A DNA stretch of 52,763 nucleotides from Kofleriaceae bacterium (GCA_964203225.1 CAXNMK010000002.1:801664-854426); one strand, 5' to 3'; positions 2,483 to 50,145 are shown, counted from the stretch's first letter. The notes: generated by a model from the sequence alone, not told the origin. Numbers and translations: made by a program.

Positions 2483-2884
2483 TCAGACCGAGAACGAGGA
2501 GCCGCAGCCGCAGGTCGACTTGACGTTCGGGTTGTTGAACTTGAACCCGGCGCCCTGCAGACCCTCGACATAGTCGATCTCGACGCCGACCAGGTACATC
2601 AGGCTCATCTCGTCGACGACGACCTTGACGCCAGCGATCTCGACGTCGCGATCGACCTCGGTGCCCTCGTCGAAGTAGAGGTCATAGGAGAACCCGGCGC
2701 AGCCGCCGCCGACGACACGGAGGCGGAGGGCCATGGTGGTCTCGATGCCCTCGGCGCCGCGGATCTCGTTGATCTTCAGGGCGGCGCCGGGGGTGATCAA
2801 GACCAGGGCCTCGGGCCCGCCCGGGTCGAGGACCGGCTGGGGGATGGTGGAGGGGGCGGTGGTGGACATCGCGAGATCAGACAT
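2483..2884 (-). CDS. Fe-S cluster insertion / A-type carrier protein (ErpA/IscA/SufA family)
   Basis: 133 aa. Carries the conserved Cys motifs GCAGFSY...FDE and a C-terminal CGCGSSF. Confidence 0.9.
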   Translation of the reverse strand: MSDLAMSTTAPSTIPQPVLDPGGPEALVLITPGAALKINEIRGAEGIETTMALRLRVVGGGCAGFSYDLYFDEGTEVDRDVEIAGVKVVVDEMSLMYLVGVEIDYVEGLQGAGFKFNNPNVKSTCGCGSSFSV

Positions 2885-4152: not shown

Positions 4153-6113
<1,961 letters not shown>

Positions 6114-6156: not shown

Positions 6157-7734
6157 ATGATCGTCGCCCTGATCGCCGCCGTCGTCATCGCGGTCCTCGC
6201 CGCGGTGTTCGCGATGCGTGCGGGCGCCGCCGAGGCGAGCCGGCAGACGCGCGCCCGCATCGAGGAGGCGCGAGCGGAGGCCACGGCCGGGATCAAGGCC
6301 GCGCAGCTCGAGGCGGTCGGGCGCCGGCGCGCGCTCGAGACCGAGGCGCGGGCCGAGGCGCTCGCCCTGCGCACCGAGGCCGATGCGCAGCTATCGGCGA
6401 AGGCGACCGCCGTGGACCGTCGCGCCGGGGCGCTCGGGCAGGCCGAGGCCGCGGTCGACAGCCTCGAGGATGCTCTCGAGCAGCGCGCGGCCGCCCTCGA
6501 CGGCGTGCACAAGGACATCCAGTCCCTGCGCGACCGCGTCGGTGGCCTCGAGGGCGATGCGCGGAAGAAGCTGGCGACCGCGCGCACCGAGCTCGAGCTG
6601 CGCGCCGGCGTCGGGGCCGCGGAGCTGATCGACCGGCTCGGGCGTGCGTGGATCGAGGACGCGCAGGCGCGCGCCGCCGCCGCGGTCCGCCAGGTCGACC
6701 AGACCGCTGCGGACCCAGCGCACGATCGCGAGGCCAAGCGCGTGCTCGAGATCGCCGCGACCCGCTACCACCACCACTACCTGACCGAGCGCGCGCAGAA
6801 CTTCCTGCGCCTCGGCCCCGACCTGGTCGGGCTGCTGCTCGATCAGGGCGGCGCGCTCCACGGTGCGCTCGAGCGGAATGCCGGCGTGCAACTCCTCGTC
6901 AACGACGAGAAGGACGCGATCCGCCTCGACGGGCTCGACGGCGTCGGCAAGGAGTTCGTCCGCCGGGCGATCAACCGCCTGATGAAGAAGCCCGAGTCGA
7001 TCGACGACGCTCGCAAGGATCCCGATGCGTGGGCGGCGCGCGGCAAGGACAATCTGATCCAGGAGATCCGCGCCCTCGGCAAGCGCGCGTTCCAGACGCT
7101 CGGCATCCCCAAGGCGCATCCGGAGATCGTCGAGCTTGTCGGCGCGCTCAACTTCCGCACCAGCTACACGCAGAACCAGTGGTGGCACGCCGTCGAGTCG
7201 TCGTACCTCGCCGGGATGATGGCGAGCGAGCTCGGGCTCGACGAGCGGCTCGCGCGGCGCGCCACGCTGATGCACGACATCGGCAAGGCGCTGACCCACA
7301 AGATCGAGGGGTCGCATGCGGTGATCGGCGCGGACATCGCGCGGCGCGTGGGTGAGTCCGAGCTGGTCGCCAACGCGATCGGCGCGCACCACGCCGACGA
7401 ACCCTGCAACTCGGTGTACGCGCACCTGGTCGCCGCTGCCGACGCGATGAGCGGTGCACGTCCCGGCGCCCGCCGCGAGCTCGCCGAGGGGTTCACCGCG
7501 AAGGTCGAGGATCTCGAGCGGATCGGTGGCGCGCGCCGCGGCGTGGCGCATGCCCACGCGGTGCACGGGGGCCGCGAGCTCCGCGTGTACGTCCGCGAGC
7601 GCGAGGTCGATGACCTCACCGTCGTCGAGATGTCCTCCGAGATCGCTCACCAGATCGGTGAGGAGATGACGTTCCCCGGTCAGATCAAGGTCACGGTGAT
7701 CCGCGCCTTCGAGGCGTCGGCCACCGCGAACTGA
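6157..7734 (+). CDS. rny: Ribonuclease Y (N-terminal TM, coiled coil, KH-like domain, HD domain)
   Basis: N-terminal TM helix (MIVALIAAVVIAVLAAVF), an Ala/Glu/Arg-rich coiled coil, and an HD-domain motif (ATLMHDIGKALTHKIEGSHAVIGADIARR...AIGAHH). The track start at 6043 overlaps the upstream PEGA domain; the ATG at 6157 precedes the TM helix. Confidence 0.9.
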   Translation: MIVALIAAVVIAVLAAVFAMRAGAAEASRQTRARIEEARAEATAGIKAAQLEAVGRRRALETEARAEALALRTEADAQLSAKATAVDRRAGALGQAEAAVDSLEDALEQRAAALDGVHKDIQSLRDRVGGLEGDARKKLATARTELELRAGVGAAELIDRLGRAWIEDAQARAAAAVRQVDQTAADPAHDREAKRVLEIAATRYHHHYLTERAQNFLRLGPDLVGLLLDQGGALHGALERNAGVQLLVNDEKDAIRLDGLDGVGKEFVRRAINRLMKKPESIDDARKDPDAWAARGKDNLIQEIRALGKRAFQTLGIPKAHPEIVELVGALNFRTSYTQNQWWHAVESSYLAGMMASELGLDERLARRATLMHDIGKALTHKIEGSHAVIGADIARRVGESELVANAIGAHHADEPCNSVYAHLVAAADAMSGARPGARRELAEGFTAKVEDLERIGGARRGVAHAHAVHGGRELRVYVREREVDDLTVVEMSSEIAHQIGEEMTFPGQIKVTVIRAFEASATAN

Positions 7735-7811
7735 GAGACTGTGAAACAGTCTCGCGAACGGGGTGGGACCCCTGCGCGGCTTGCCGCGGAGGGCGGGGCG
7801 GAGCCCCGTGG
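7735..7811 (+). repeat. REP-like ~80 nt intergenic element, single copy. The hairpin GAGACTG-TGAAA-CAGTCTC starts one nt after the rny stop codon, followed by a GC-rich GGGGTGGGACCCCTGCGCGGCTTGCCGCGGAGGGCGGGGCGGAGCCCCGTGG module
   Basis: Same family as the 4-copy array at 25150-25485 and the inverted copy at 38192-38271. Read directly from the sequence. Confidence 0.7.
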
Positions 7812-8183
7812 CACTGACGCACGAGCGCCGACGACACCCGGATGCACCGCGCGTCAGTGCCCCGTGTCGACTCCTCGCTCGGTCCTGCGGCGGAGGGCGG
7901 GCCGATAGCGGCGTGGGACGGGGGGAGGGGCGGGCAGGCGACGGCTCGTGTGCTGCATTCTGCAATCGCAGCCACGCGTGAACTCGACGAGCGCGATCCC
8001 AAGGCGCCCCGCCCGATGGCGGCGCCCAAGAAGCACTGCAACCCGAGCGAGGCCGCCGAGCACCAGCCGTGGCGCGTGCGCAAGGACGCGGAGGGCGACC
8101 GGCACCGGACCATCCAGAGATCGGGGGCTGCCACGGTCGCGATCCCCGTAGGTTCAGCACCTTCCTGTTCGGGACCCAACTCC

Positions 8184-23596: not shown

Positions 23597-25149
23597 GCCA
23601 AAACGTTATCACGGTCGCTGCACGGGTGGCGGTCGTCGCGGCCGTCGCCAGCCTCGCGGGATGTACGCCGCGCGATCGCCGCACGCCCGACGACACCCTG
23701 GTCGTCGTGATCGAGACCGCGATGACGACCGCCGATCCGCGCTACGCGCTGTCGAGCTACGACGGCAAGCTCGCGAAGCTGGTGTGCGCGGGGCTGACCG
23801 CGCTCGACACGCCGGACCTCGTGCCGCGCCTCGAGCTCGCGTCGCGGATCGACCGGATCGACGACGTGACCTGGGACGTCGCGATCCGCGCGGATGCCCG
23901 GTTCTCCGACGGGGCACCGGTCACCGCCGAGGACGTCGCCGGCACCTACCAGGCGCTGCTCGCCCCCGCCTCCGACAGCCTGTTCCACAAGTCGCTGTCG
24001 GAGAAGTTCGCCCGGGTCGAGGTCCGCGGCCCGGGGCTGGTGCGCTTCCACCTCAAGACCGCACTCGCGACGCTGATGACGGACCTCGACTTCGGGATCT
24101 TCCGGACCACGGCCGGGTTGCCCGCGCCGGGCAAGGTCGTCGGCGCCGGGCCGTACGTCGTGCGCGCGCTGTCGTCGCAGCAGGTGCGGCTCGACGCCAA
24201 CCCGCACTACGTGGGCGGGCCACCGCGCACGCCCCACGTCGAGATCCGGTTCGTGCGTGACGGTGCGGCGCGCCTGCTGATGCTCGTCGGTGGCAGCGCT
24301 GATCTGATCCAGAACGCCGTCCGCCTCGATCTCGTCGATGATCTTGCGGGCCGGCCGCGCGTGCGCATCGAGTCTGCGCCGAGCGTGATCCTGACGTACC
24401 TGATGCTCAACAACGACGACCCGGTGCTGCGCGACGTCCGCGTGCGCCGCGCGATCGGGTACGCGCTCGATCGCCGCGCGATCATCGCGGCGCAGTTCGG
24501 CGGGCGTGCGCAGCTCGCGAGTGGGCTGGTCGCGCCGCTCCACTGGGCCTACAACCCGGACGTTCCGCGCTACGAGCACGATCCCGCGCGTGCGAAGCAG
24601 CTGCTCGACGAGGCCGGCCTGCGCGACCCCGACGGCGACGGGCCGCGGCCGCGGCTGCACCTCGTCTACAAGACCAGCTCCGATGCGTTCCGCGTGGCGG
24701 TGGCGCGCGTGATCGCGGCGCAGCTCGCCGAGATCGGACTCGACGTCGAGGTGCGCTCGTTCGAGTTCGGGACGTTCTTCGCGGACGTCAAGAAGGGCAG
24801 CTACCAGCTCGCCTCGATGCAGACCTCGGACATCAGCGACCCGGACTTCTACTTCACCTACTTCCACTCGTCGTGGATCCCGAGCGCGACCACTCCCGAC
24901 GGCTACAATCGCTGGAGGTACCGCAGCGAGGTCGTCGACCGGCTGACCGAGGCGGGGCGGCGCGAACTCGATCGCCCGCGCCGCAAGGCGATCTACGACC
25001 AGGTCCAGGCCCAGGTGGCCGCCGATGCCCCGGTGATCCCGCTGTGGCATGAGGACAACGTGGTCCTCACCAACATCGACGTGCGGGGCTACCAGATCAC
25101 CCCCAACGCGCGCCTGGTGGGGCTGCGGGCGGCGTGGAAGGCGCCCTGA
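23590..25149 (+). CDS. ABC transporter substrate-binding lipoprotein, family 5 (peptide/nickel/opine type)
   Basis: Lipobox [28 protein letters not shown]_bac_5-like body. Stop TGA at 25147-25149. Confidence 0.85.
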   Translation: MPRQNVITVAARVAVVAAVASLAGCTPRDRRTPDDTLVVVIETAMTTADPRYALSSYDGKLAKLVCAGLTALDTPDLVPRLELASRIDRIDDVTWDVAIRADARFSDGAPVTAEDVAGTYQALLAPASDSLFHKSLSEKFARVEVRGPGLVRFHLKTALATLMTDLDFGIFRTTAGLPAPGKVVGAGPYVVRALSSQQVRLDANPHYVGGPPRTPHVEIRFVRDGAARLLMLVGGSADLIQNAVRLDLVDDLAGRPRVRIESAPSVILTYLMLNNDDPVLRDVRVRRAIGYALDRRAIIAAQFGGRAQLASGLVAPLHWAYNPDVPRYEHDPARAKQLLDEAGLRDPDGDGPRPRLHLVYKTSSDAFRVAVARVIAAQLAEIGLDVEVRSFEFGTFFADVKKGSYQLASMQTSDISDPDFYFTYFHSSWIPSATTPDGYNRWRYRSEVVDRLTEAGRRELDRPRRKAIYDQVQAQVAADAPVIPLWHEDNVVLTNIDVRGYQITPNARLVGLRAAWKAP

Positions 25150-25485
25150 GAGACGGTGAAACCGTCTCGAAGCCGGGGTGGGAACCCTGCGCGGCTTGCC
25201 GCGGAGGGCGGGGCGGAGCCCCGTGGGATCGAGGGACGGTGAACCCGTCTCGAAGCCGGGGTGGGAACCCTGCGCGGCTTGCCGCGGAGGGCGGGGCGGA
25301 GCCCCGTGGGATCGAGGGACGGTGAACCCGTCTCGAAGCCGGGGTGGGAACCCTGCGCGGCTTGCCGCGGAGGGCGGGGCGGAGCCCCGTGGGATCGAGG
25401 GACGGTGAACCCGTCTCGAAGCCGGGGTGGGAACCCTGCGCGGCTTGCCGCGGAGGGCGGGGCGGAGGCCCGTGGAACCGAGGGA
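25150..25485 (+). repeat. Tandem array of four 83 bp REP-like elements. Each unit has the hairpin GAGACGGTGAA(A/C)CCGTCTC plus GGGGTGGGAACCCTGCGCGGCTTGCCGCGGAGGGCGGGGCGGAGCCCCGTGGGATCGAGGGA. The first hairpin starts right at the stop codon of the SBP gene
   Basis: The period of 83 is verified from unit starts at 25153, 25236, 25319 and 25402. The four identical small ORFs predicted at 25178, 25261, 25344 and 25427 are artefacts of the repeat. Confidence 0.85.
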
Positions 25486-25586
25486 GCGCCCGGCGGGACG
25501 CAGCCGGCGCGCGCGGCTGGCAAATGCGGCGGCCTCCCAGATGAGCCTGGAACGGGGGGGCGGGACATGGTACCAACCGGCCCTCG

Positions 25587-25847
25587 ATGTCCATGGATCA
25601 AGCCTCCGAGGACCTGTTCCTCGGCATCGCTCACGCACTGTTCGTGAACCGCCTCCACGTCCTCCGCCTCACGGAGATCGTGCGGCTCGGCGTTCGCCCC
25701 GACCCGCACGACCAGAACATGGAAGTGCCCCAGGAGGTCGACCGCGAGCTGATCCAGCAGGCGTTCGCCTACGTGACCCGCCATTTCCCGTCTGCCTTCA
25801 CCGGCAAGCTCGAGGCGGCGAAGGCGCGCTGGATCCGCCTGGCTTGA
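25587..25847 (+). CDS. Small hypothetical protein (86 aa)
   Basis: Balanced amino-acid composition (MSMDQASEDLFLGIAHALFVNRLHVLRLTEIVRLG...), unlike the surrounding GC-artefact ORFs. No recognisable family. Confidence 0.4.
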   Translation: MSMDQASEDLFLGIAHALFVNRLHVLRLTEIVRLGVRPDPHDQNMEVPQEVDRELIQQAFAYVTRHFPSAFTGKLEAAKARWIRLA

Positions 25848-25979
25848 TCGGGGCGTGATCCGGTCCTCGACCGGGCCCACGCGGCGTGGTCGCCGCGGCC
25901 CGGCCGCGATCGCGACGGGGGTGGCTGCGTTCGCGCGGGAGCAGGCTGCGTGCGCGCCGGAGCAGGCTACGCTGGGTTC

Positions 25980-26930
25980 ATGCACCGCCTGGTCGACCTG
26001 CTGATCTCGCCCCTGGTCCCGCTGTCATTCGGCCGCCCGGGGCTGCGCGTGCGCCGGGGCGGGTTCACCGCGCTGCCGCGGCAGGACGGGCGCCACGTGG
26101 TGATCACCGGCGCCAACAGCGGCATCGGCCGGGCCGCGACGGAGGTGCTCGCCTGCCTTGGCGCGCGCGTCACGATGGTGTGTCGGGATGGCGGACGGGG
26201 CGAGGTGGCGCGGGCCGAGCTCGCGTCGGCGATCGGGCGGGATGATCTGCTGACCGTGGAGCGCTGCGATCTGTCACGCCTGGACGATGTCGCCGCGCTC
26301 GCGGCGCGCCTGACCGCGCCGATCGACGTGCTGATCCACAACGCGGGCCTGCTGCCAGCGGCGCGCACCGACACCCCCGACGGCCTCGAGTTGACGTGGG
26401 CCACGCACGTCGCCGGCCCGCACCTGCTGACCCGGCTCCTTCGACCGCGCCTGGCCGCGGGCGCGCGCGTGGTGTGGGTGTCGTCGGGTGGGATGTACCT
26501 CGCGCCGCTGGTCGCGCCGGGCACCGTGCCCGCGCCGTACGACGGCGTCCGCGCGTACGCGCTGACCAAGCGCGCGCAGGTGGTGCTCGCGAGCCTGTGG
26601 GCCGCGTACGAGCCCGCGGTCGTGTCCGTCGCGATGCACCCCGGCTGGGCCGACACCGTGGCGGTGCAGACCTCGCTGCCGCGGTTCCGCGCGCTGACGC
26701 GGCCGCTGCTGCGCGATGCCGCGGGCGGGGCGGACACCATCGCGTGGCTCGCCGCCGCGCCGGGCGAGGCGCTCGCGAGCGGCGCGTTCTATTTCGACCG
26801 GGCAAAGCGCGGGACCCACGTGGCGCCGTGGCAACGCGAGACGCCGGCCGCGCGCGACGCGCTGTGGTCGTGGTGTGAGGACCTCGCAGCGCCGTTCGTG
26901 GCGCGCCTGGCCGCGGCCCGCGTCAGCTGA
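25980..26930 (+). CDS. SDR-family oxidoreductase (retinol-dehydrogenase-like)
   Basis: VITGANSGIGRA, NAG and YALTKRAQ motifs. ATG at 25980 verified. Confidence 0.8.
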   Translation: MHRLVDLLISPLVPLSFGRPGLRVRRGGFTALPRQDGRHVVITGANSGIGRAATEVLACLGARVTMVCRDGGRGEVARAELASAIGRDDLLTVERCDLSRLDDVAALAARLTAPIDVLIHNAGLLPAARTDTPDGLELTWATHVAGPHLLTRLLRPRLAAGARVVWVSSGGMYLAPLVAPGTVPAPYDGVRAYALTKRAQVVLASLWAAYEPAVVSVAMHPGWADTVAVQTSLPRFRALTRPLLRDAAGGADTIAWLAAAPGEALASGAFYFDRAKRGTHVAPWQRETPAARDALWSWCEDLAAPFVARLAAARVS

Positions 26931-36254: not shown

Positions 36255-37932
36255 CTACGGTGTAACCGCGGGTGGGGCGGGCGCATCGGTGATCATGGTC
36301 AGGGGCTCGCCGTACAGGGCCGTCCACGCCGCCGTGGCCGCTTCCCGCAGGTCGGCGGTCGGCATCGCCGCCAGGGCGGTCAGCGCGGGGACCAGCCGCT
36401 CGCGGTTGACGCCGCGTGCGTAGCGCGGGCCGGCCAGCTCGACGTGGCGCGCGGCCGCCAGCGCCTCGAGGACGACCATCGCGGCGTAGCTCTCACCGGT
36501 GCCCCAGCGGTCGCGGTGCATCAGGTGGCCGATCAGCTGCCACAGCGCCGCGTGTGGGGTCACCAGATCGTTGGCGATCTGCGACAGGTACGCCGACAGC
36601 TCGGCGCGCGCGGAGCGGACGATCGCGCGCGGGTTGCCCTCGCCGTCGTGGGGGGCGCCGAGCAAGTCCTGGAGTTGCGGCGGGTAGCGCAGCTCGGTGT
36701 CGCGATCGTAGTCGAAGCCGTGCTGTGCTTCGTGGCGTCGCACGGTGGCGGCGACGCGCTCGAGCACGCGCGCGTGCAGGCGTGGGCCCTCGACCGCCGC
36801 GATCCGCGCATCGAGCGCGGCCACCTTGTCGCGCTGGGAGGTCAGGACCTTGCCCTCGAGCTCGGCGAGGAGCGCGGGCGGCACGAACAGGCCATCGGTC
36901 TCGATGACGTAGAACCGGCCGCGCTCGAGCTTGTCGCGCCACTCGTCGATGATCGCGCCGCGCGTCACGAGCAGCGCCGCGACCTCGGCGGTGGCCGCGG
37001 CGTCGGTGCCGAGCGCGGCGGCGTACTCGCGACGGACCGCGTCGCCGATGGTGGTGGCGAGCGTGCGATTGGCTGGCCACGTCATCCACTCGCGATCGGC
37101 GAGCGGGTAGGGCGTGCCAGCGGCGAGCACCGGCAGCACCGTCGATGGCGGCGTACTGCTGGATCTGCTCGAGCAGCAGCACCGGCGTGCGATCGACGTC
37201 CGCGTCGTGCAGGCCGAGCGCGGTCCACCGGAGGTTGAGCCGGTCCGCGCGCCGCAGGGACAGCACGCGGCGGCGCGCGCCCCCGGCCTCCACGAACACG
37301 ACCTCCTCGACGCGATACGCCTGGACGTACGGGTAGCCGCTCTTGAACCGGCCCTCCAGGTGGTAGCCGAGGCCGGCGCCGAGCAGCGCCTGGCTGAGTT
37401 CGCGCACCCCCTCGACGAGCTCGTCGTGCTCGCGCGGCGTCGGGCCACCCGGGCGGGCGGCGGCCTCGACGGAGCGCGTGAACGTGTCCACCATCGCGTC
37501 CCACGCGGCGCGCACGGCGGGTGGCTGGCCGGCGAGTGCGCGCGGGGCGCGGACGGCGGCGAGCGCGACGGGGAGCGTGTGGTCCTTCCCGTCGCGGGCG
37601 CGCCCGCCCTGGACCACCAGCGCGGTCAGCGGCGCGGCGAGCAGCGCATCGATCGCCGGATCGGTGAGCGGCACGCCCCCGGTCACGAACGCCTGCGCGG
37701 ACGGCGGCGGCAGCGGGCGCGCGTAGGTGCGGCTCGGCGGCGCCGGGCGCAGCACCACGAGCAGGGCGATCACGCCGATCACGGCGGCGGCGAGCAGCCC
37801 GGCGAGCACGGTCATCACGGACGCGCGGGGTATCGCGGCCGGTCCGAGCGCCGCGTACGCCGCGGTCACGGCCGCGAGGTCGCCGGCGTCGGGCGCCGGG
37901 CGGCCCGCGACCGCGAGCGCGGCGACGCGCAT
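36255..37932 (-). CDS. Hypothetical membrane-anchored protein (N-terminal TM, ~560 aa). Apparent frameshift near 37130-37150
   Basis: The N-terminal part is in ORF 36493..38262 from MRVAALAVAG (TM segment VMTVLAGLLAAAVIGVIALLVVL) to ...EQIQQYAAIDG. It continues in ORF 36255..37448 from TVLPVLAAGTPYPLADREWMTW... to the end. Codon reading places a 1-nt discrepancy at atcgacggtgctg. Confidence 0.5.
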
Positions 37933-38191
37933 CACGTGATCGGGTGGGGCGGGGCGCAGCGCCGCCGCGTCGCAGGCGAGGGCGGCGTCGAGCAGGTACC
38001 GCTCGAGCCGGCGGCGCGCGAGGCGACGCGCGACCGGATCGGCCACAGCGAGCGCGCGGCGCGCGGCGTCCTCGTCGGCATCGGCGATCCCCACGGCGAG
38101 GGCGCCGCGCACGTGTCCACCGGTCAACAGGTCACATTTGCCTGAGATCGCCCGGGTGGGCAAGCGACATGTTCGGCCAGGCGCGTCCGTT

Positions 38192-38271
38192 CCACGGGGC
38201 TCCACCCCGCCCTCCGCGGCAAGCCGCGCAGGGTTCTCACCCCGGCTTCGAGCCTGTTTCACAGTCTCTCA
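38192..38271 (-). repeat. REP-like element, inverted single copy, immediately 3' of the UbiA-family gene stop codon
   Basis: The reverse complement reads TGAGAGACTGTGAAACAGGCTCGAAGCCGGGGTGAGAACCCTGCGCGGCTTGCCGCGGAGGGCGGGGTGGAGCCCCGTGG. Confidence 0.7.
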
Positions 38272-39153
38272 GTGCACGTAGATCACGCCGACGATCGTGG
38301 TGACCGCACCGCTCAGGATGGCGAGGAACCATGGGTCGCGGAGCATCGCCTCGGTCGGGCTGTCGTCCTTGGGCCACCACAGCGCGAGCCCGAGGAACCG
38401 CACGATGCCGAGCACCACGAACGGCGTGCTGTACGCGAGCCGGTCGGTGCCGAAGAATGCGATCGTGTGCGGATCCACCGTGTACGCGAGGTACGCGCCG
38501 CAGGTGCCGAGCGCGAGCACGAGCATCGCCACGCGCACCACCGGGATCCGGTAGCCGGCGAGGGCGGCGCGGGTCTGCGTGGCATGGCCGGCCCGCTCCG
38601 CCCACGACAGCTCGTGGGCGCGCTTGCCGAGCCCGAGGAGCGTGGCCAGCAGGGCGGTGCACAGCAGCAGCCACCCGGACGCCGGGACCGCGATCGCGGC
38701 GGCTCCCGCGAGCACGCGCAGGAGGAACCCGCTCGCGATCACGGCGACGTCGACGAACGCGATGTGCTTGAGGCGCAGGCTGTACGCCACGTTCTGGACC
38801 AGGTAGCCGGCCGCGACCCCGGCGAGCGGCCACGCGATCACCATGCACGCCCCGAGCGCGACCGCGGCGAGCGCGGCGGCGGAGGTCAGCGCGGCGCGCT
38901 CGGACAGGACCCCGGCGGCGATCGGCCGGTGCCGCTTCTTCGGGTGCGCGCGATCCTGCTCGACGTCACGGACGTCGTTGAACGCGTAGACCGCCCCCGA
39001 CAGCAGGCAGAACGCGAGCACCGCGACCGCCGTGCGGGCGACGTACGCTGGGTCCGTGAGGTGCCGCGAGAACACCAGCGGTGCCGCGACGAACACGTTC
39101 TTGACCCACTGGTGCGGCCGGATCGTCTTGATCAGGCCGAGCGCTGGACCCAT
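38269..39153 (-). CDS. UbiA-family prenyltransferase, decaprenyl-phosphate phosphoribosyltransferase-like
   Basis: NDxxDxxxD motif (FNDVRDVEQDRAHPKKRHRP). Eight or nine TM helices. Close to the DPPR synthase (Rv3806c-type) family. Confidence 0.8.
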   Translation of the reverse strand: MGPALGLIKTIRPHQWVKNVFVAAPLVFSRHLTDPAYVARTAVAVLAFCLLSGAVYAFNDVRDVEQDRAHPKKRHRPIAAGVLSERAALTSAAALAAVALGACMVIAWPLAGVAAGYLVQNVAYSLRLKHIAFVDVAVIASGFLLRVLAGAAAIAVPASGWLLLCTALLATLLGLGKRAHELSWAERAGHATQTRAALAGYRIPVVRVAMLVLALGTCGAYLAYTVDPHTIAFFGTDRLAYSTPFVVLGIVRFLGLALWWPKDDSPTEAMLRDPWFLAILSGAVTTIVGVIYVH

Positions 39154-39157
39154 GCGC

Positions 39158-41407
39158 TCACTCGGCTCGCGCCTGATCGGGGTACTCCTCGAGCCACGCG
39201 CCGATCTTCTCGAGCTGGCAGGCCCGGATCAGCTCCGCGGTGCAGGTCGCGGTCGCCTGGGCGGCGCAGTCCATCGCGGGCGCGCCGCTGCCGGCCTCGC
39301 TGGATGCGCTGCCGCTGCCGGCCATCGCGCTGCCGCTGCCGGCCATCGCGCTGCCGCTGCCGGCCATCGCGCTGCCGCTGCCGGCCTCGCCGATCGCGCT
39401 GCCGCTGCCCGCCTCGCCGGTCGCGCTGCCGCTGCCCGCCTCGCCACCCTCGGGAGGCGCCGCGCCACCGCTGCACGCGGCGACCTTCTCCGCGATGCAT
39501 TCGGTCGCATCGGGCGGCAGGATCGCGCAGTTCGCCGCCTCGACGAACAGGCTGCGGCAGGAGTCCTTCGCGGTGCCGGTGAGCGCGTCGCAGCTCGCCA
39601 GCTTCTTCACGACGGGGCCGCCGTCCGCGCGTGTCAGTGCCTTGGTGACGGTCTTCGGATCCCCGGCCTCGTCGAGCTCCGGCGTCCCGTTCGCGCCGAG
39701 CACGGGCTCGGCGTACTCCACGGGCTTGCCCGCCGCGTCGATCATCGCGATCTCGGTGATCGTGGTCACCGCGTACTCGGGGTGCAGCGCGTCGCCATTG
39801 AGGTTCGACACCACCCACTGCGCGACCGCGCGGTTGGCGCAGGCGATCTGCGCCGGGTCCTTGAGCTTGGCGTCTGGCTGGCAGGTCGTGACGTCGAAGA
39901 ACAGCGCCTGGCACACGCCGCGCTCGTTCTCGTCCTTGAGCGCCTTGCAGTCCTTGAACGCCCGGACCAGCGGCTTGCCACGGGCGTCCTTCAGCGGGTT
40001 ACCAAGCGCATCGACGAGGGGCAGCTCGGTGACCGACACCTTGCTCTCGTCGATGCCGGTCTCGACCATGACCACGAGGTTGTTGATCGGCGACGTGCGC
40101 GGCGCCTCGGGCACGCTGACCATGGTGATCGCTGGCACATAGGTGACCACCATGAGCGCGACGATCATCGTGATCAGGAACGGCACGGTCGCCCACATCA
40201 CCTCGGTGATCGGCCGCTGGAACTTCACGCTCGTCAGAAACAGATTCAGGCCGACGGGCGGGTGGAGGTATCCGACCTCGAGGTTGAGCAGGAAGATCAC
40301 GCCGAGGTGGTACGGGTCGATACCGTACGACTTCGAGATCGGCGCGATCAGCGGCAGCACCACGACGATCGCGGAGAAGATGTCCATGACCGTGCCGACG
40401 ATCAGCAGGATCACGTTGATCGCGAGCAGGAACACGATCTTCGATTCGACGGTCGCCTGGGTGAAGGCGACCAGCTTCTTGGGGACCTCGGCGTTGACCA
40501 TGAAGTCGGTGAACGCCGTCGACGCGAAGATGATCATGAAGATCGCGCCGATCATGGCCATCGCCTCGTAGCTGATGCCCCACATCTGCTTGATCGACAG
40601 GGCCCGGTAGACCGCGAGCTCCAGGATGGCGACGTAGAGCACCGTGATCGAGGCGATCTCGGGCAGGCCGAAGCCCGACGCGAGGCCGACGATCACGCCG
40701 AACGGAATCAGCAACTCGGGGGCCGCCGCGACGAAGCTCTTGCCGAGTTCGCCGATCTCGAAGCCCTGGCGGGGCAGCTTCTTCCGGATCGCGACGAACA
40801 CCGCGACCGCCGACAGCATCCCGATCAGCACGAGGCCGGGGACCACGCCGGCGAACAGGAACCGGCCGGTGTCCCAGTTCTCCTTGTCGAGACCGGTCAG
40901 GCCATAGACGGTGCCGTAGATGAACAGCGGCAGGGCCGGCGGGAACAGCAGGCCGACCGAGCCGGTGCCCGCGATCAGGCCCATCGCGAACCGCTCGGGG
41001 TAGCCGTTGCGCACGAGCGCGGGCATCAGCACGCCGCCGAGCGCGATGATCGTGACGCCGGACGCGCCGGTGAACACGGTGAACAGCGAGCACGTGCCGA
41101 TCGTGACGATCGCGAGGCCACCGGGGAGCCAGCCCATCAGGGCGTTGGCGAACCGCACCAGGCGGTCGGCGGTCTTTGCCTCGGCGAGCAGGTAGCCCGC
41201 GTAGATGAACAGCGGGATCGTGGACAGCACCTCGATCTCGTCGCGGCCGCTGATGCCGAACAGCTTGTTGATGGCGCCATCGAAGCCGATGGTGAAGCCG
41301 CGGGCCGAGAACAGGGCGCCGAGCGCGGTCCCGCCGAGCATGATGGTGAACAGGGGCGCGCCGCTGATGAAGATGAGCGCGAGGCCGATGATGAGGAGGG
41401 TCAGCAT
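39158..41407 (-). CDS. TRAP transporter large permease DctM fused to a ~320 aa C-terminal Cys-rich extracytoplasmic domain with (AGSGS)n repeats
   Basis: The first ~430 aa are a DctM-like 12-TM permease. They are followed by a Cys-rich (12 Cys), non-hydrophobic domain and GEAGSGSATGEAGSGSA...AMAGSGSAMAGSGS repeats encoded by a 24-bp tandem DNA repeat at ~39290-39440. Confidence 0.85.
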   Translation of the reverse strand: MLTLLIIGLALIFISGAPLFTIMLGGTALGALFSARGFTIGFDGAINKLFGISGRDEIEVLSTIPLFIYAGYLLAEAKTADRLVRFANALMGWLPGGLAIVTIGTCSLFTVFTGASGVTIIALGGVLMPALVRNGYPERFAMGLIAGTGSVGLLFPPALPLFIYGTVYGLTGLDKENWDTGRFLFAGVVPGLVLIGMLSAVAVFVAIRKKLPRQGFEIGELGKSFVAAAPELLIPFGVIVGLASGFGLPEIASITVLYVAILELAVYRALSIKQMWGISYEAMAMIGAIFMIIFASTAFTDFMVNAEVPKKLVAFTQATVESKIVFLLAINVILLIVGTVMDIFSAIVVVLPLIAPISKSYGIDPYHLGVIFLLNLEVGYLHPPVGLNLFLTSVKFQRPITEVMWATVPFLITMIVALMVVTYVPAITMVSVPEAPRTSPINNLVVMVETGIDESKVSVTELPLVDALGNPLKDARGKPLVRAFKDCKALKDENERGVCQALFFDVTTCQPDAKLKDPAQIACANRAVAQWVVSNLNGDALHPEYAVTTITEIAMIDAAGKPVEYAEPVLGANGTPELDEAGDPKTVTKALTRADGGPVVKKLASCDALTGTAKDSCRSLFVEAANCAILPPDATECIAEKVAACSGGAAPPEGGEAGSGSATGEAGSGSAIGEAGSGSAMAGSGSAMAGSGSAMAGSGSASSEAGSGAPAMDCAAQATATCTAELIRACQLEKIGAWLEEYPDQARAE

Positions 41408-44498: not shown

Positions 44499-46094
44499 AT
44501 GAGGTGGCTGGCCGGCCTCGGCCTCGTACTCGGTCTGGTGATCGCGCTCCTGGCGTGTAACGCAGACCGCACCGCGACCGCGCGCCGCCGCGACCCGGGC
44601 GCGCTCGTGGTCGCGCGTGCCGCCGACGTCCAGTCGCTCGATCCCGTCCGGGTCACGGACAGCGAGTCGTACGAGGTCGCGGGGCTGGTGCTCGAGGGGC
44701 TGCTGCGGTGGAAGCCCGGGACCACCGACGTGCTGCCCGGCCTGGCGACCGCATGGCACGCGTCGGCCGACGGGCGGGTGTGGACGTTCGAGCTGCGCCA
44801 CGACGTCCGGTTCCACGACGGCACCGCGTTCGACGCGCGGGCGGTCGTGTTCTCGTTGGCGCGCCTGCTCGACCCTCACCACCCGAACTACCTGGGGGAG
44901 GCCGGGGCGTACAGGCGCAGCCTGCTGCGCGGGATCACCCGGGTGGTGCCGATCACGGCGGACACCGTCGAGATCCACGTCGATCGGCCCTACGCGCCGC
45001 TGCTCGGGGACCTCGCGATGTTCCCGATCGTGTCGCCGACCGCGGTCACCCTGCTCGGCGACGGGTTCCAGGCGCACCCGGTCGGCACCGGCCCGTTCGC
45101 GTTCGAGGAGTGGGCCCCGGGCGACCATGTCGTGGTCCACCGGTTCGACGGCTACTGGGGCCCCCCGCCGGCGATCGCGCGGATCGTGTTCCGCGTGATC
45201 GTGGACCCGCGGCAGCGCCTCGTCGAGCTCGAGTCCGGGTCGGTCGACATCGCGATGTCGATCCTGCCGGACGAGCAGTCGTTCGTGGAGCTGCATCCGG
45301 ACCTGGTGCTGCACAGCACGCCCGGCAACGATGTCAGCTACCTCGCCTTCAACACCCAGCGGCCGTGGTTCCGCGATGTGCGCGTGCGGCGCGCGATCAG
45401 CTACGCGATCAACAAGGAGCCGATCGTCAAGCTCGCGTACCAGGGCCGCGCGGTCGCCGCCGTCGGCCCGCTCCCGCCGACCCAGTGGGCCCACCACACC
45501 CCGCGCGCGACCTACCCGTACGATCTGGTCACCGCGCGCACGCTGCTCGGCGAGGCCACCGCGGCCGGGGCGTTCCCGCCTGGCCTGGTCCTCACACTGT
45601 ACGCCCCGTCGACGCCGCGCCTGTACCTCGCGCAGCCCGAGCGGGTGGCGCGGTTCCTCCAGTCCGCGCTCGCGCAGGTCGGGGTGCAGACCCGGCTGGT
45701 GCTGCTGCCGTACGCGCAGCACAAGGCGATCGTCGAGGCGGGCCTCCACGATCTGGCGGTGTTCGGCTGGATCGGCGACACCGGGGACCCTGACAACTTT
45801 CTCCAGGTGCTGTTCCACTCCGATCACGCCGTGGCGCCGGACGCCAAGAACATCGCGTTCTACCAGAACGCCGCGGTTGACCGCTTGCTGCGCGAGGCGC
45901 AGGGCGCGACCGATGAGGCCACACGCGCGGCGCTGTACGCCGAGGTCCAGGACCTGATCGCCGCCGATGCGCCGTGGGTGCCGCTCGCGCACTCCGAGCT
46001 GGTGGTGGCGGCGCGGGCCGACCTCGAGGGCGTGATCCTGTCGCCGATCGGCCACCCGATCTACCCGCTGATCCGGCGTGCGGGGGGCCGGTGA
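44499..46094 (+). CDS. ABC transporter substrate-binding lipoprotein, family 5 (peptide/nickel type)
   Basis: Lipobox MRWLAGLGLVLGLVIALLAC. SBP_bac_5 body. Confidence 0.85.
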   Translation: MRWLAGLGLVLGLVIALLACNADRTATARRRDPGALVVARAADVQSLDPVRVTDSESYEVAGLVLEGLLRWKPGTTDVLPGLATAWHASADGRVWTFELRHDVRFHDGTAFDARAVVFSLARLLDPHHPNYLGEAGAYRRSLLRGITRVVPITADTVEIHVDRPYAPLLGDLAMFPIVSPTAVTLLGDGFQAHPVGTGPFAFEEWAPGDHVVVHRFDGYWGPPPAIARIVFRVIVDPRQRLVELESGSVDIAMSILPDEQSFVELHPDLVLHSTPGNDVSYLAFNTQRPWFRDVRVRRAISYAINKEPIVKLAYQGRAVAAVGPLPPTQWAHHTPRATYPYDLVTARTLLGEATAAGAFPPGLVLTLYAPSTPRLYLAQPERVARFLQSALAQVGVQTRLVLLPYAQHKAIVEAGLHDLAVFGWIGDTGDPDNFLQVLFHSDHAVAPDAKNIAFYQNAAVDRLLREAQGATDEATRAALYAEVQDLIAADAPWVPLAHSELVVAARADLEGVILSPIGHPIYPLIRRAGGR

Positions 46095-46285
46095 TCCCGC
46101 CCGAGCCGGCGGGGAGCCGCCCGCCCACGCGCGATCCAGATGACGAGGCCGAGGGGGAGCCCGAGCCGCGGCTGTCGCTGCGGTTGCTGTGGCCGATCGC
46201 GCCGCGGTCGCCCGACCCGAAGCTGGCGCGGCCGGCACCCGCGCTGCGGCTGCGGCTGCGGCTGCGCTCCAAGCTGGTCGTGGCG

Positions 46286-49008: not shown

Positions 49009-49012
<4 letters not shown>
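46286..49012 (+). CDS. Sensor histidine kinase (TM - periplasmic sensor - TM - HAMP - GAF - HisKA - HATPase_c)
   Basis: H-box GVAHEINSPTAAI. N/G boxes NLIQNAQQA and DDGPGV...GTGLGLAIS. A HAMP domain follows the second TM. The start is uncertain: ATG 46286, or an upstream TTG/CTG in the RLRLRLR region. Confidence 0.85.
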
Positions 49013-50067
<1,055 letters not shown>

Positions 50068-50145
50068 GGGATTGCGGCGCAAACCCGGCGTCGCGGCCGG
50101 GGCGCCTTCAAACGCCCGACCCAAGGTGGTACGGTTGTCGCTCCC

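Follow-up and report, generated by a model that had tools for sequence, protein, structure and literature searches.

An array of 83-nt hairpin units behind a TGA stop codon in a Kofleriaceae bacterium: probable local amplification of a small dispersed repeat

How did four nearly identical 83-nt units come to lie head to tail directly behind the stop codon of a transporter gene? The question is raised by a 52,763-nt stretch of DNA from a Kofleriaceae bacterium (GCA_964203225.1, CAXNMK010000002.1:801664-854426; "the window" below), in which the units follow a gene for an ABC-type substrate-binding protein (SBP_bac_5; the SBP gene below). We consider it probable that the array is a local tandem amplification of a small, non-coding, dispersed and lineage-specific Kofleriaceae-like repeat, which would be non-autonomous and recently mobile. 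What is new is the sequence family; its kind, a small dispersed intergenic repeat that behaves as a variable-number tandem repeat (VNTR), is already known.

Tandem Repeats Finder places the array at 25148-25485 (period 83, 4.1 copies, 98% matches, 0 indels, score 641). It is the strongest tandem array in the window, with every other one far below. A second repeat search of the window reproduced the 83-nt register, and a 44-nt piece of the unit had 4 matches in the window versus 0.00 expected from 100 shuffles. How far the count of four copies can be trusted depends on how well the source contig was assembled. An earlier, sequence-only reading of this DNA had described a four-copy array of this period, and the searches bear it out. 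The same holds for the hairpin with a 7-bp stem that it placed at the SBP stop codon: the TGA occupies 25147-25149 and GAGACGGTGAAACCGTCTC begins at 25150, which puts the first base of hairpin 1 at stop +1. Both of the further GC-rich stems that it saw in each unit are present as well (hairpins 2 and 3; Table 1). The 519-aa product of the SBP gene is identical to database protein P0124, with the annotated start 11 codons inside the open reading frame (ORF) that was delimited first.

As that reading also held, the array is not a CRISPR: the units are contiguous, there are no unique spacers, and the repeat spacing equals the unit length of 83. A coding repeat is ruled out too, because 83 is not a multiple of three.

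The unit is found elsewhere in the window. Two further copies were identified in agreement by blastn-short, nhmmer, comparison of the window against itself and a covariance model (R1), and according to blastn, nhmmer and the covariance model the copies within the window are limited to copy A, the four units at 25150-25481 (locus B) and copy C (Table 1). Copies A and C are 89-93% identical to the array units and lie 17 kb and 13 kb from the array beside unrelated genes, C on the opposite strand. Copy A directly follows the TGA (7732-7734) of an RNase Y gene (6157-7734; 525-aa product with RNase_Y_N and HD domains), and copy C the TGA (38271-38269) of a UbiA-family prenyltransferase gene (38269-39153, minus strand). 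Domain matches show that the three upstream ORFs (RNase Y, SBP_bac_5 and UbiA) are genuine genes. The RNase Y product, like that of the SBP gene, has an identical counterpart in the database. A pattern search with the 5' 44 nt (up to 3 mismatches) matched the array alone and missed copies A and C, in which hairpin 1 differs. With two more copies in the same 52.7 kb the unit is not a one-off, which removes the concern of the sequence-only reading that it might occur at the array locus alone.

Comparison of the copies delimits an element of exactly 80 nt, which ends in GTGG(A/C)AC and is followed by TGA at A, CGA at B and GGA at C. The array period of 83 is thus explained by the 80-nt element plus a trailing NGA triplet. 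The start common to all three loci is TGA followed directly by GAGAC(G/T)GTGAAAC, and upstream of the TGA the sequences are unrelated except for a C. The element contains 9 T in 83 nt, and its sense strand is G-rich (39 G versus 24 C). G-tracts (GGGG-T-GGG and GGG-C-GGGG) flank hairpin 2 at 25177-25214 and at the same positions of each unit, the second being broken in copy C (GAG); from their sequence a hairpin-loop G-quadruplex is possible.

At all three loci the element starts at stop +1, has the same orientation as the upstream gene and is followed by a co-directional gene. In the window about 40 genes end and ~6 kb are non-coding. By a rough estimate, a random copy would fall at stop +1 of a co-oriented gene with a chance of ~0.003, or ~1e-7 for three out of three copies. 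Abutment of the stop codon is a property of the whole family and not of the array locus, which the sequence-only reading had missed. Stop-adjacent hairpins are rare here, one other gene end in the window having a hairpin at +1, of unrelated sequence. The second SBP_bac_5 gene of the window (44499-46094) has a 7-bp hairpin at +1 after its TGA (46095-46115; TCCCGCC...GGCGGGGA), the sequence of which is unrelated to the element.

Empty and filled sites were compared at loci A and B. For locus B, the corresponding regions of L001-L003, L017-L023 and L029-L031 were used (alignment A1). L017 is 100% identical to the window in the SBP gene and 99.7-99.9% in the flanks, and carries one copy; the gap between the SBP gene and the small gene behind it is 194 nt in L017 versus 437 nt in the window. 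The 5' end of the L017 copy is that of unit 1 and is joined to GGAGCCCC and GGAACC, features that no unit of the window unites. Since this combination is absent from the array and the contig was assembled with k=141 (k141_...), the one-copy allele is real and a collapsed assembly is ruled out. The array is a strain-level copy-number variant, 1 versus 4, the kind of variation among strains for which the sequence-only reading had suggested a check.

More distant relatives vary in the presence of the element. L001 and L029 (95% identity to the window) have one strongly diverged copy (62 bits), with the right junction as in the window (ACCGA-GGGAGCGCCC). In L018-L023 (98.7% identity to L001) the TGA is followed directly by ACGGCGGCAAATG, and the element and 32 further nt are absent, most simply by a secondary deletion. 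No element is present in L030 and L031 (95% identity to the window), which have a 122-nt gap, or in L002 and L003 (76-80% identity).

In the right flank of the array, the first ~32-42 nt (GGGAGCGCCCGGCGGGACGCAGCCGGCGCGCG...) are missing from the L018-type allele and the last ~60 nt are kept in all relatives. They may be native DNA homologous to the L030 allele, for which there is a suggestive but not significant match (p=0.12); their similarity to a decayed partial unit was not significant (p=0.31). The ~60 nt before the 86-aa gene (25520-25586; GGCAAATG..CCTCCCAGA..GCCTGGAACGGGGGG.CGGGAC-ATG) are near-invariant in relatives that differ by 5-11% elsewhere. They hold a GG-N10-GC spacing and may, judging from the sequence, be a promoter or leader signal of the small 86-aa gene, which always follows the SBP gene.

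The units of the array suggest how one copy became four. The single-copy 5' end (GAGAC...GAAAC) is retained in unit 1 and the single-copy 3' end (GGAACC) in unit 4. Units 2-4 have GGGAC..GAACC where unit 1 has GAGAC..GAAAC, and unit 4 has GGAGGCCC in addition to GGAACC. Unit 3 has the same sequence as unit 2, and derived changes (GAACC, GGGATC) are common to the inner units. Units 2-4 begin with CGA-GGGAC, as a hybrid of TGAGAGAC at the left end of the element and CGAGGGAG in the right flank, the latter being present already in the right flank of one-copy alleles. The short direct repeats TGAGAGAC and CGAGGGAG would have mediated the first duplication at the SBP locus, through slippage or unequal exchange, giving the hybrid CGAGGGAC junction of units 2-4, and later unequal exchange would have homogenised the inner units. 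As far as the sequences tell, the unit pattern is the usual signature of such slippage or unequal exchange with homogenisation. Repeated independent insertion does not fit as the origin of the array, because units 2-4 share derived changes. The array thus appears to be a secondary amplification of one copy, a point that the sequence-only reading did not make.

At locus A, the site behind the RNase Y gene is empty in L024, L026, L027 and L028 (about 92% nt identity where measured) and reads GCGAACTGA followed directly by CGCGCGCC, i.e. GCGAAC TGA CGCGCGCC. The covariance model found no element at locus A of L024, L026 and L027. The contigs of L026 (11588) and L028 (1981) have assembly breaks 10 nt past the RNase Y stop; each shows TGACGCGCGCCGC, as expected of an empty site. 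The window reads GCGAACTGA, 80 nt and TGACGCAC, i.e. GCGAAC TGA, 80 nt and TGA CGCAC, and continues with GAGCGCC... The TGA is thus present twice, once before and once after the element, in the manner of a 3-nt target duplication, and the next five native bases are probably also repeated on both sides of copy A.

From GAGCGCC... onward the window aligns to L024 from 2843, and the aligned stretch is the final 35 nt of a BON-domain gene that the relatives have. In the window lineage ~860 bp adjoining copy A have been lost, including the BON-domain gene (L024 2284-2877; L024 1980-2885 was compared with window 7815-7860), of which the last ~35 nt remain (window 7822-7860).

Together, these comparisons show that close relatives differ in whether a given stop codon is followed by the element (~92-95% identical ones lack it). 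Because of these differences in presence and copy number, a mobile or REP-like (repetitive extragenic palindromic) element is the best fit among the options offered by the sequence-only reading. Its comparison with a MITE (miniature inverted-repeat transposable element) does not hold in the classical sense, since terminal inverted repeats are lacking: the first 30 nt and the reverse complement of the last 30 nt were no more similar than shuffles (p=0.13-0.62).

The element would have spread by a transposition-like process with (C)TGA as target. With so short a target, insertions at other TGAs would hit genes or promoters and be lost by purifying selection, and an insertion at a stop codon that keeps the frame and regenerates the stop would cost nothing and survive. 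Co-orientation with the gene would then necessarily follow from the use of its stop as target. CTGA precedes the copy in three of three cases, which has to be read with n=3 and with CTGA being a common gene end in this genome. The end of the element together with the trailing triplet, AC(T/C/G)GA, resembles the target. The flanking triplets are TGA...TGA at A (matching the empty site of relatives, TGACGCGC), TGA...CGA at B and TGA...GGA at C.

We would only tentatively go further and propose that the element homes to stop codons, recognising TGA in a gene-end context, inserting in fixed orientation and regenerating the stop. The homing target is possibly TGA-CGCG, a sequence shared by the empty sites behind RNase Y and, in L030, at locus B, and also found on the right side of copy C. 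To our knowledge, such a target rule has been described for no bacterial transposon family. If true, a non-autonomous element could thereby spread in a genome packed with genes at almost no cost, and a zero-distance TGA lock that held genome-wide and reflected true target recognition would be an unusual homing rule.

For large scans we used the conserved core of the element, GCGCGGCTTGCCGCGNNGGGCGGGG (23 bases). It matched three genome contigs (GTDB species representatives) and two metagenome contigs (JGI). These matches are due to chance: all fall within coding sequences of Burkholderiales or Novosphingobium-like organisms, and the similarity ends with the core. The core had 0 matches in viral contigs and none in the plasmid collection. 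Within the collections searched, the family appears by sequence to be confined to the species of the window and its 95% relatives. Among 5.8 billion predicted proteins, a 229-aa query (both strands, all frames) found none over the element; as 83 is not a multiple of three, a single frame read through the array passes through the unit in each of its three frames.

The window is ordinary core chromosome, with genes for Fe-S cluster assembly, the mevalonate pathway, a TRAP transporter and similar housekeeping functions. The best matches of its proteins are proteins of metagenome-assembled genomes labelled Kofleriaceae, Myxococcales or Deltaproteobacteria. GC content is 66-77% and GC skew is uniform. 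No transposase genes (Y1 transposase and RAYT included) were seen among the window genes, and a tRNA/tmRNA search of the window found none.

Several observations weigh against a recently mobile, dispersed family. Its size, the target rule and the orientation rule rest on n=3 loci, and beyond these three the genome, metagenome and viral scans gave chance matches or none. There are no terminal inverted repeats and no candidate transposase in the window, and the TGA is repeated exactly at one of the three loci only. Both filled-versus-empty comparisons involve extra indels: the insertion at locus A coincides with the ~860-bp loss and is not a clean one, and the empty L018 allele also lacks 32 further nt, so that locus B may reflect either gain or loss of the element. 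Finally, the L001/L029 copy is far more diverged from the window copies than its flanks are (62 versus >105 bits).

Alternatively, the repeat could be an RNA element that the host has selected in 3' untranslated regions (3'UTRs) or between cistrons, either as protection against 3' exonucleases or as a terminator or insulator without U-tract, with four units strengthening the effect for the SBP gene. REPs are classically credited with stabilising upstream mRNA, also after transporter binding-protein genes, and REP sequences follow malE and hisJ in enterobacteria, with a stacked effect on the upstream mRNA. All copies here lie on the sense strand of the upstream gene and between co-directional genes. 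RNAalifold predicted three local sense-strand hairpins in all intact copies, in which 93.8% of cells pair versus 42-53% when the partners are slid. We nevertheless regard selection by the host as rather unlikely.

Covariation is limited to hairpin 1, with a compensated change of G-C to T-A (U-A) in copies A and C and two changes in L001. Hairpins 2 and 3 have none and, being nearly invariant, are uninformative. Conservation is no higher in the stems than in the loops and linkers, a pattern that suggests recent common descent rather than structural selection. Three one-sided changes give G-U on the sense strand versus A-C on the antisense strand. With three out of three (p about 0.125) this is a weak hint of a constraint on sense RNA or the top strand.

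The folds of single copies are somewhat more stable than those of shuffles (z = -1.0 to -2.7). The array folds better than shuffles on both strands, as expected of any hairpin array, and the antisense strand has the better z (-6.6 versus -3.7 for sense). The L001/L029 copy has lost hairpin 1 and has no excess folding energy (z = +0.3), which is evidence against a strong selection for structure. In close relatives the same genes have no element behind them.

No U-tract, terminator-like or promoter-like site was found in 24500-26500. The stacked transcription terminator suggested by the sequence-only reading is therefore not supported, and an intrinsic (Rho-independent) terminator is rejected for a GC-rich hairpin without U-tract in so T-poor a sequence. 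Nor did its suggestion of a small RNA or known RNA family gain support: Rfam gave no match with E<=10 on the element (24500-26500) and none at gathering score in the whole window. The element would be co-transcribed with the upstream gene into 3'UTR or intercistronic RNA, where 3'-to-5' decay may be slowed by the hairpins, or transcription that runs on into the next gene reduced; this we regard as a by-product and not as what accounts for the element. From the predicted folds, such RNA effects (3'-end protection, partial insulation) are plausible. They are not needed to explain the data and are weakened by the decayed L001 copy and by the element-free relatives.

A more specific version of the mobility step, which we judge unlikely, is that the repeat derives from a single-strand transposon (HUH/Y1, IS200/IS605- or RAYT-type) and inserts 3' of (C)TGA without duplication. 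The trailing NGA would then be its own right cleavage site, hairpins 1 and 3 would be subterminal hairpins bound by the transposase, and arrays would grow by insertion beside a resident right end. The C before TGA at three of three loci and the target-like end of the element would fit, as would hairpins near both ends in the absence of terminal inverted repeats and an orientation fixed relative to the target strand. Members of the IS200/IS605 group such as IS608 likewise insert 3' of a short fixed sequence and have subterminal hairpins, and the right-end triplet of our element ends 10 nt past the foot of hairpin 3, which is the IS608 right-end geometry (PMC3201880).

The left end does not follow that geometry, however. 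Hairpin 1 adjoins the target and leaves no room for a guide, which in IS608 is accommodated in 19 nt (PMC3201880). On inspection, the four bases 5' of the hairpin feet are not complementary to CTGA or NGA, and following the rule in PMC3201880 no TCAG-like guide was found 5' of hairpins 1, 2 and 3 in the three copies. Copies occur on both strands (two plus, one minus) while GC skew is uniform, so that a strand bias as in IS200/IS605 is not seen. The window has no Y1 transposase gene, and the derived changes shared by units 2-4 point to local duplication and not to repeated insertion.

A purely local minisatellite, i.e. native intergenic DNA duplicated in place without a dispersed family, would account for the 1-versus-4 variation between strains, but it is contradicted by the two copies 17 kb and 13 kb away and by relatives without the sequence altogether at the same sites, and is very improbable. 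A recoding signal, with UGA and the immediate hairpin directing selenocysteine insertion or read-through, has in its favour the TGA plus hairpin at +1 in three genes and can practically be dismissed: RNase Y, the SBP and the UbiA protein, though unrelated, would all acquire the same meaningless tail (ETVK(P/Q)SR...) with different stops, element-free orthologues stop at the same codon, Rfam gave no match to a selenocysteine insertion sequence (SECIS), and the loop follows the UGA at 8-12 nt, a shorter distance than in the SECIS elements of bacteria.

A dispersed and locally amplified repeat, as we propose, can be compared with known systems. In behaviour it is closest to MIRU-VNTRs (mycobacterial interspersed repetitive units), and then to REPs and MITEs; by analogy this would be a likeness of functional class and not homology. 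As summarised in PMC12548453, MIRU-VNTRs have units of tens of bases, are intergenic between co-directional genes, co-oriented and with ends locked to flanking codons, and are apparently mobile, with head-to-tail arrays whose copy number differs between strains. Direct tandem units of 40-100 bp that vary among strains are found here as well (period 83; 4 versus 1 copies), and so are dispersed and co-oriented intergenic copies (three loci in 52.7 kb). According to the same summary (citing Supply et al., 1997), MIRUs insert at start codons and have a small ORF coupled to the downstream gene. In contrast, the element described here is locked to the upstream TGA, has no ORF, a period of 83 and three hairpins, and comes from another phylum than mycobacteria, the likeness drawn here being one of behaviour. 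A MIRU-like coupled ORF was not found: there is no ATG/GTG overlap, the loop of the following unit contains an in-frame TGA, and 60-470 nt separate the element from the downstream start.

REP, BIME and REPIN sequences resemble the element as GC-rich extragenic hairpin repeats, often just after genes, non-autonomous and lineage-specific (PMC3116915, PMC3337134). REPs are single palindromes of 20-40 nt, typically in inverted pairs (REPINs), with RAYT transposases (PMC3116915, PMC3337134). Our element differs in having 80 nt and three unlike hairpins, in being single or in direct tandem, and in lying 0 nt from the stop. Membership was rejected, as there is neither a short lone palindrome nor an inverted pair. 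No RAYT was seen among the window genes.

TRIT ('Tuberculosis Rho-independent terminator') motifs share with the element a conserved multi-copy structure in a high-GC genome, a narrow position relative to the stop codon and the lack of a canonical U-tract (PMC3152330). They are palindromic, mostly bidirectional, centred ~8 nt inside the coding sequence and found in Mycobacterium only (RNIE paper, PMC3152330), whereas the element, itself strand-specific, begins at +1 and does not form a single long palindrome.

Bacterial MITEs (Correia/NEMIS, RUP, ERIC) are also small, non-autonomous and intergenic, with filled and empty sites (PMC2229807, PMC3184786). Filled and empty sites are found here too, with A empty in L024 and L026-L028 and B empty in L030/L031 and L018-L023, and the best-preserved site (locus A) has a short repeated target triplet. 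According to PMC4596501, MITEs can carry internal minisatellites. The element differs from MITEs in having no terminal inverted repeats, no known related insertion sequence and a strict orientation to the neighbouring gene. An integron attC site was rejected on inspection, as the ends GAGACGG... and ...GTGGAACNGA are not complementary and there is no GTTRRRY. REP/REPIN, classical MITE, attC, CRISPR and intrinsic terminator each fail at least one defining feature tested.

The repeat thus adds a family of novel sequence, from an uncultured Kofleriaceae-like lineage of myxobacteria, to the small set of bacterial repeats that, like MIRUs, are both interspersed and locally variable in copy number. 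The zero-distance TGA lock at three of three loci would make it a clean test case for how non-autonomous elements find harmless sites in gene-dense genomes, and also for a possible effect of stop-adjacent hairpins on termination or mRNA decay in high-GC bacteria without canonical terminators. In practice, strains of this soil lineage can be told apart by the array and by the insertion polymorphisms, which serve as markers as they stand. The repeat may also break short-read assemblies here, where the contigs of L026 and L028 stop just past RNase Y, although both of them have the empty site.

Table 1. Positions of the array, its hairpins, the other copies and adjoining features in the window.
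Feature	Position	Strand	Description
SBP gene (SBP_bac_5), 519 aa	23590-25149	+	ABC-type substrate-binding protein, upstream gene of locus B; Pfam PF00496, E=5e-68
Array unit 1	25150-25232	+	80-nt element at 25150-25229, then CGA; ancestral 5' end GAGACGGTGAAACCGTCTC
Array unit 2	25233-25315	+	Internal type; 5' end GGGACGGTGAACCCGTCTC, 3' end GGGATCGA
Array unit 3	25316-25398	+	Same sequence as unit 2
Array unit 4	25399-25481	+	Internal-type 5' end, ancestral-type 3' end GTGGAACCGA; private change GGAGGCCC
Right flank of array	25482-25586	+	Reaches the ATG of a conserved 86-aa gene (25587-25847)
Hairpin 1	25150-25168	+	7 G-C/A-T pairs, or 8 with a T-A pair closing a GAA loop
Hairpin 2	25185-25208	+	CCCT-G-CGCGG/CTTG/CCGCG-G-AGGG
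Hairpin 3	25209-25223	+	CGGGGC/GGA/GCCCCG
Copy A, single	7735-7817	+	80-nt element at 7735-7814, TGA at 7815-7817; 106.7 bits (covariance model)
Copy C, single	38268-38186	-	80-nt element at 38268-38189, GGA at 38188-38186; 107.1 bits (covariance model)
Doubtful degenerate fourth relative	50068-50138	+	Covariance-model match of 17.8 bits, E about 0.06

The doubtful fourth relative lies at stop +1 of a GGDEF response-regulator gene (49009-50067, TGA 50065-50067), with the hairpin GGGATTGCGGCGCAAACCC and the end GGTGGTACGG, and occupies the 78-nt gap before a glycerol-3-phosphate dehydrogenase gene (ATG 50146). Its position is partly forced, as model R1 itself begins with TGA plus hairpin. It may be a decayed family member, or else a hairpin that adjoins a stop codon without being related.

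Downstream of copy C, a gene seems to be split between two frames near 37400 (36255-38130, minus strand). Of its two ORFs, 36493-38262 and 36255-37448, each encodes a portion of a plausible protein, and the gene is either a pseudogene or the result of an indel error in long-read assembly. Elsewhere in the window, a 122-nt inverted match of 74% identity connects 2501-2622, inside an Fe-S_biosyn-domain gene (2483-2884, minus strand), with 10990-10869. Imperfect tandem repeats with periods of 21, 27 and 42 nt at 39271-39445 lie within the C-terminal extension of a 749-aa DctM-domain gene (39158-41407, minus strand). A (GGCGGT)n repeat at 5437-5783, with 57 hexamer copies and a higher-order period of 30 nt, lies in a Ser/Thr protein kinase gene (4153-5826) and encodes a Gly-rich tail in the C-terminal part of the kinase.

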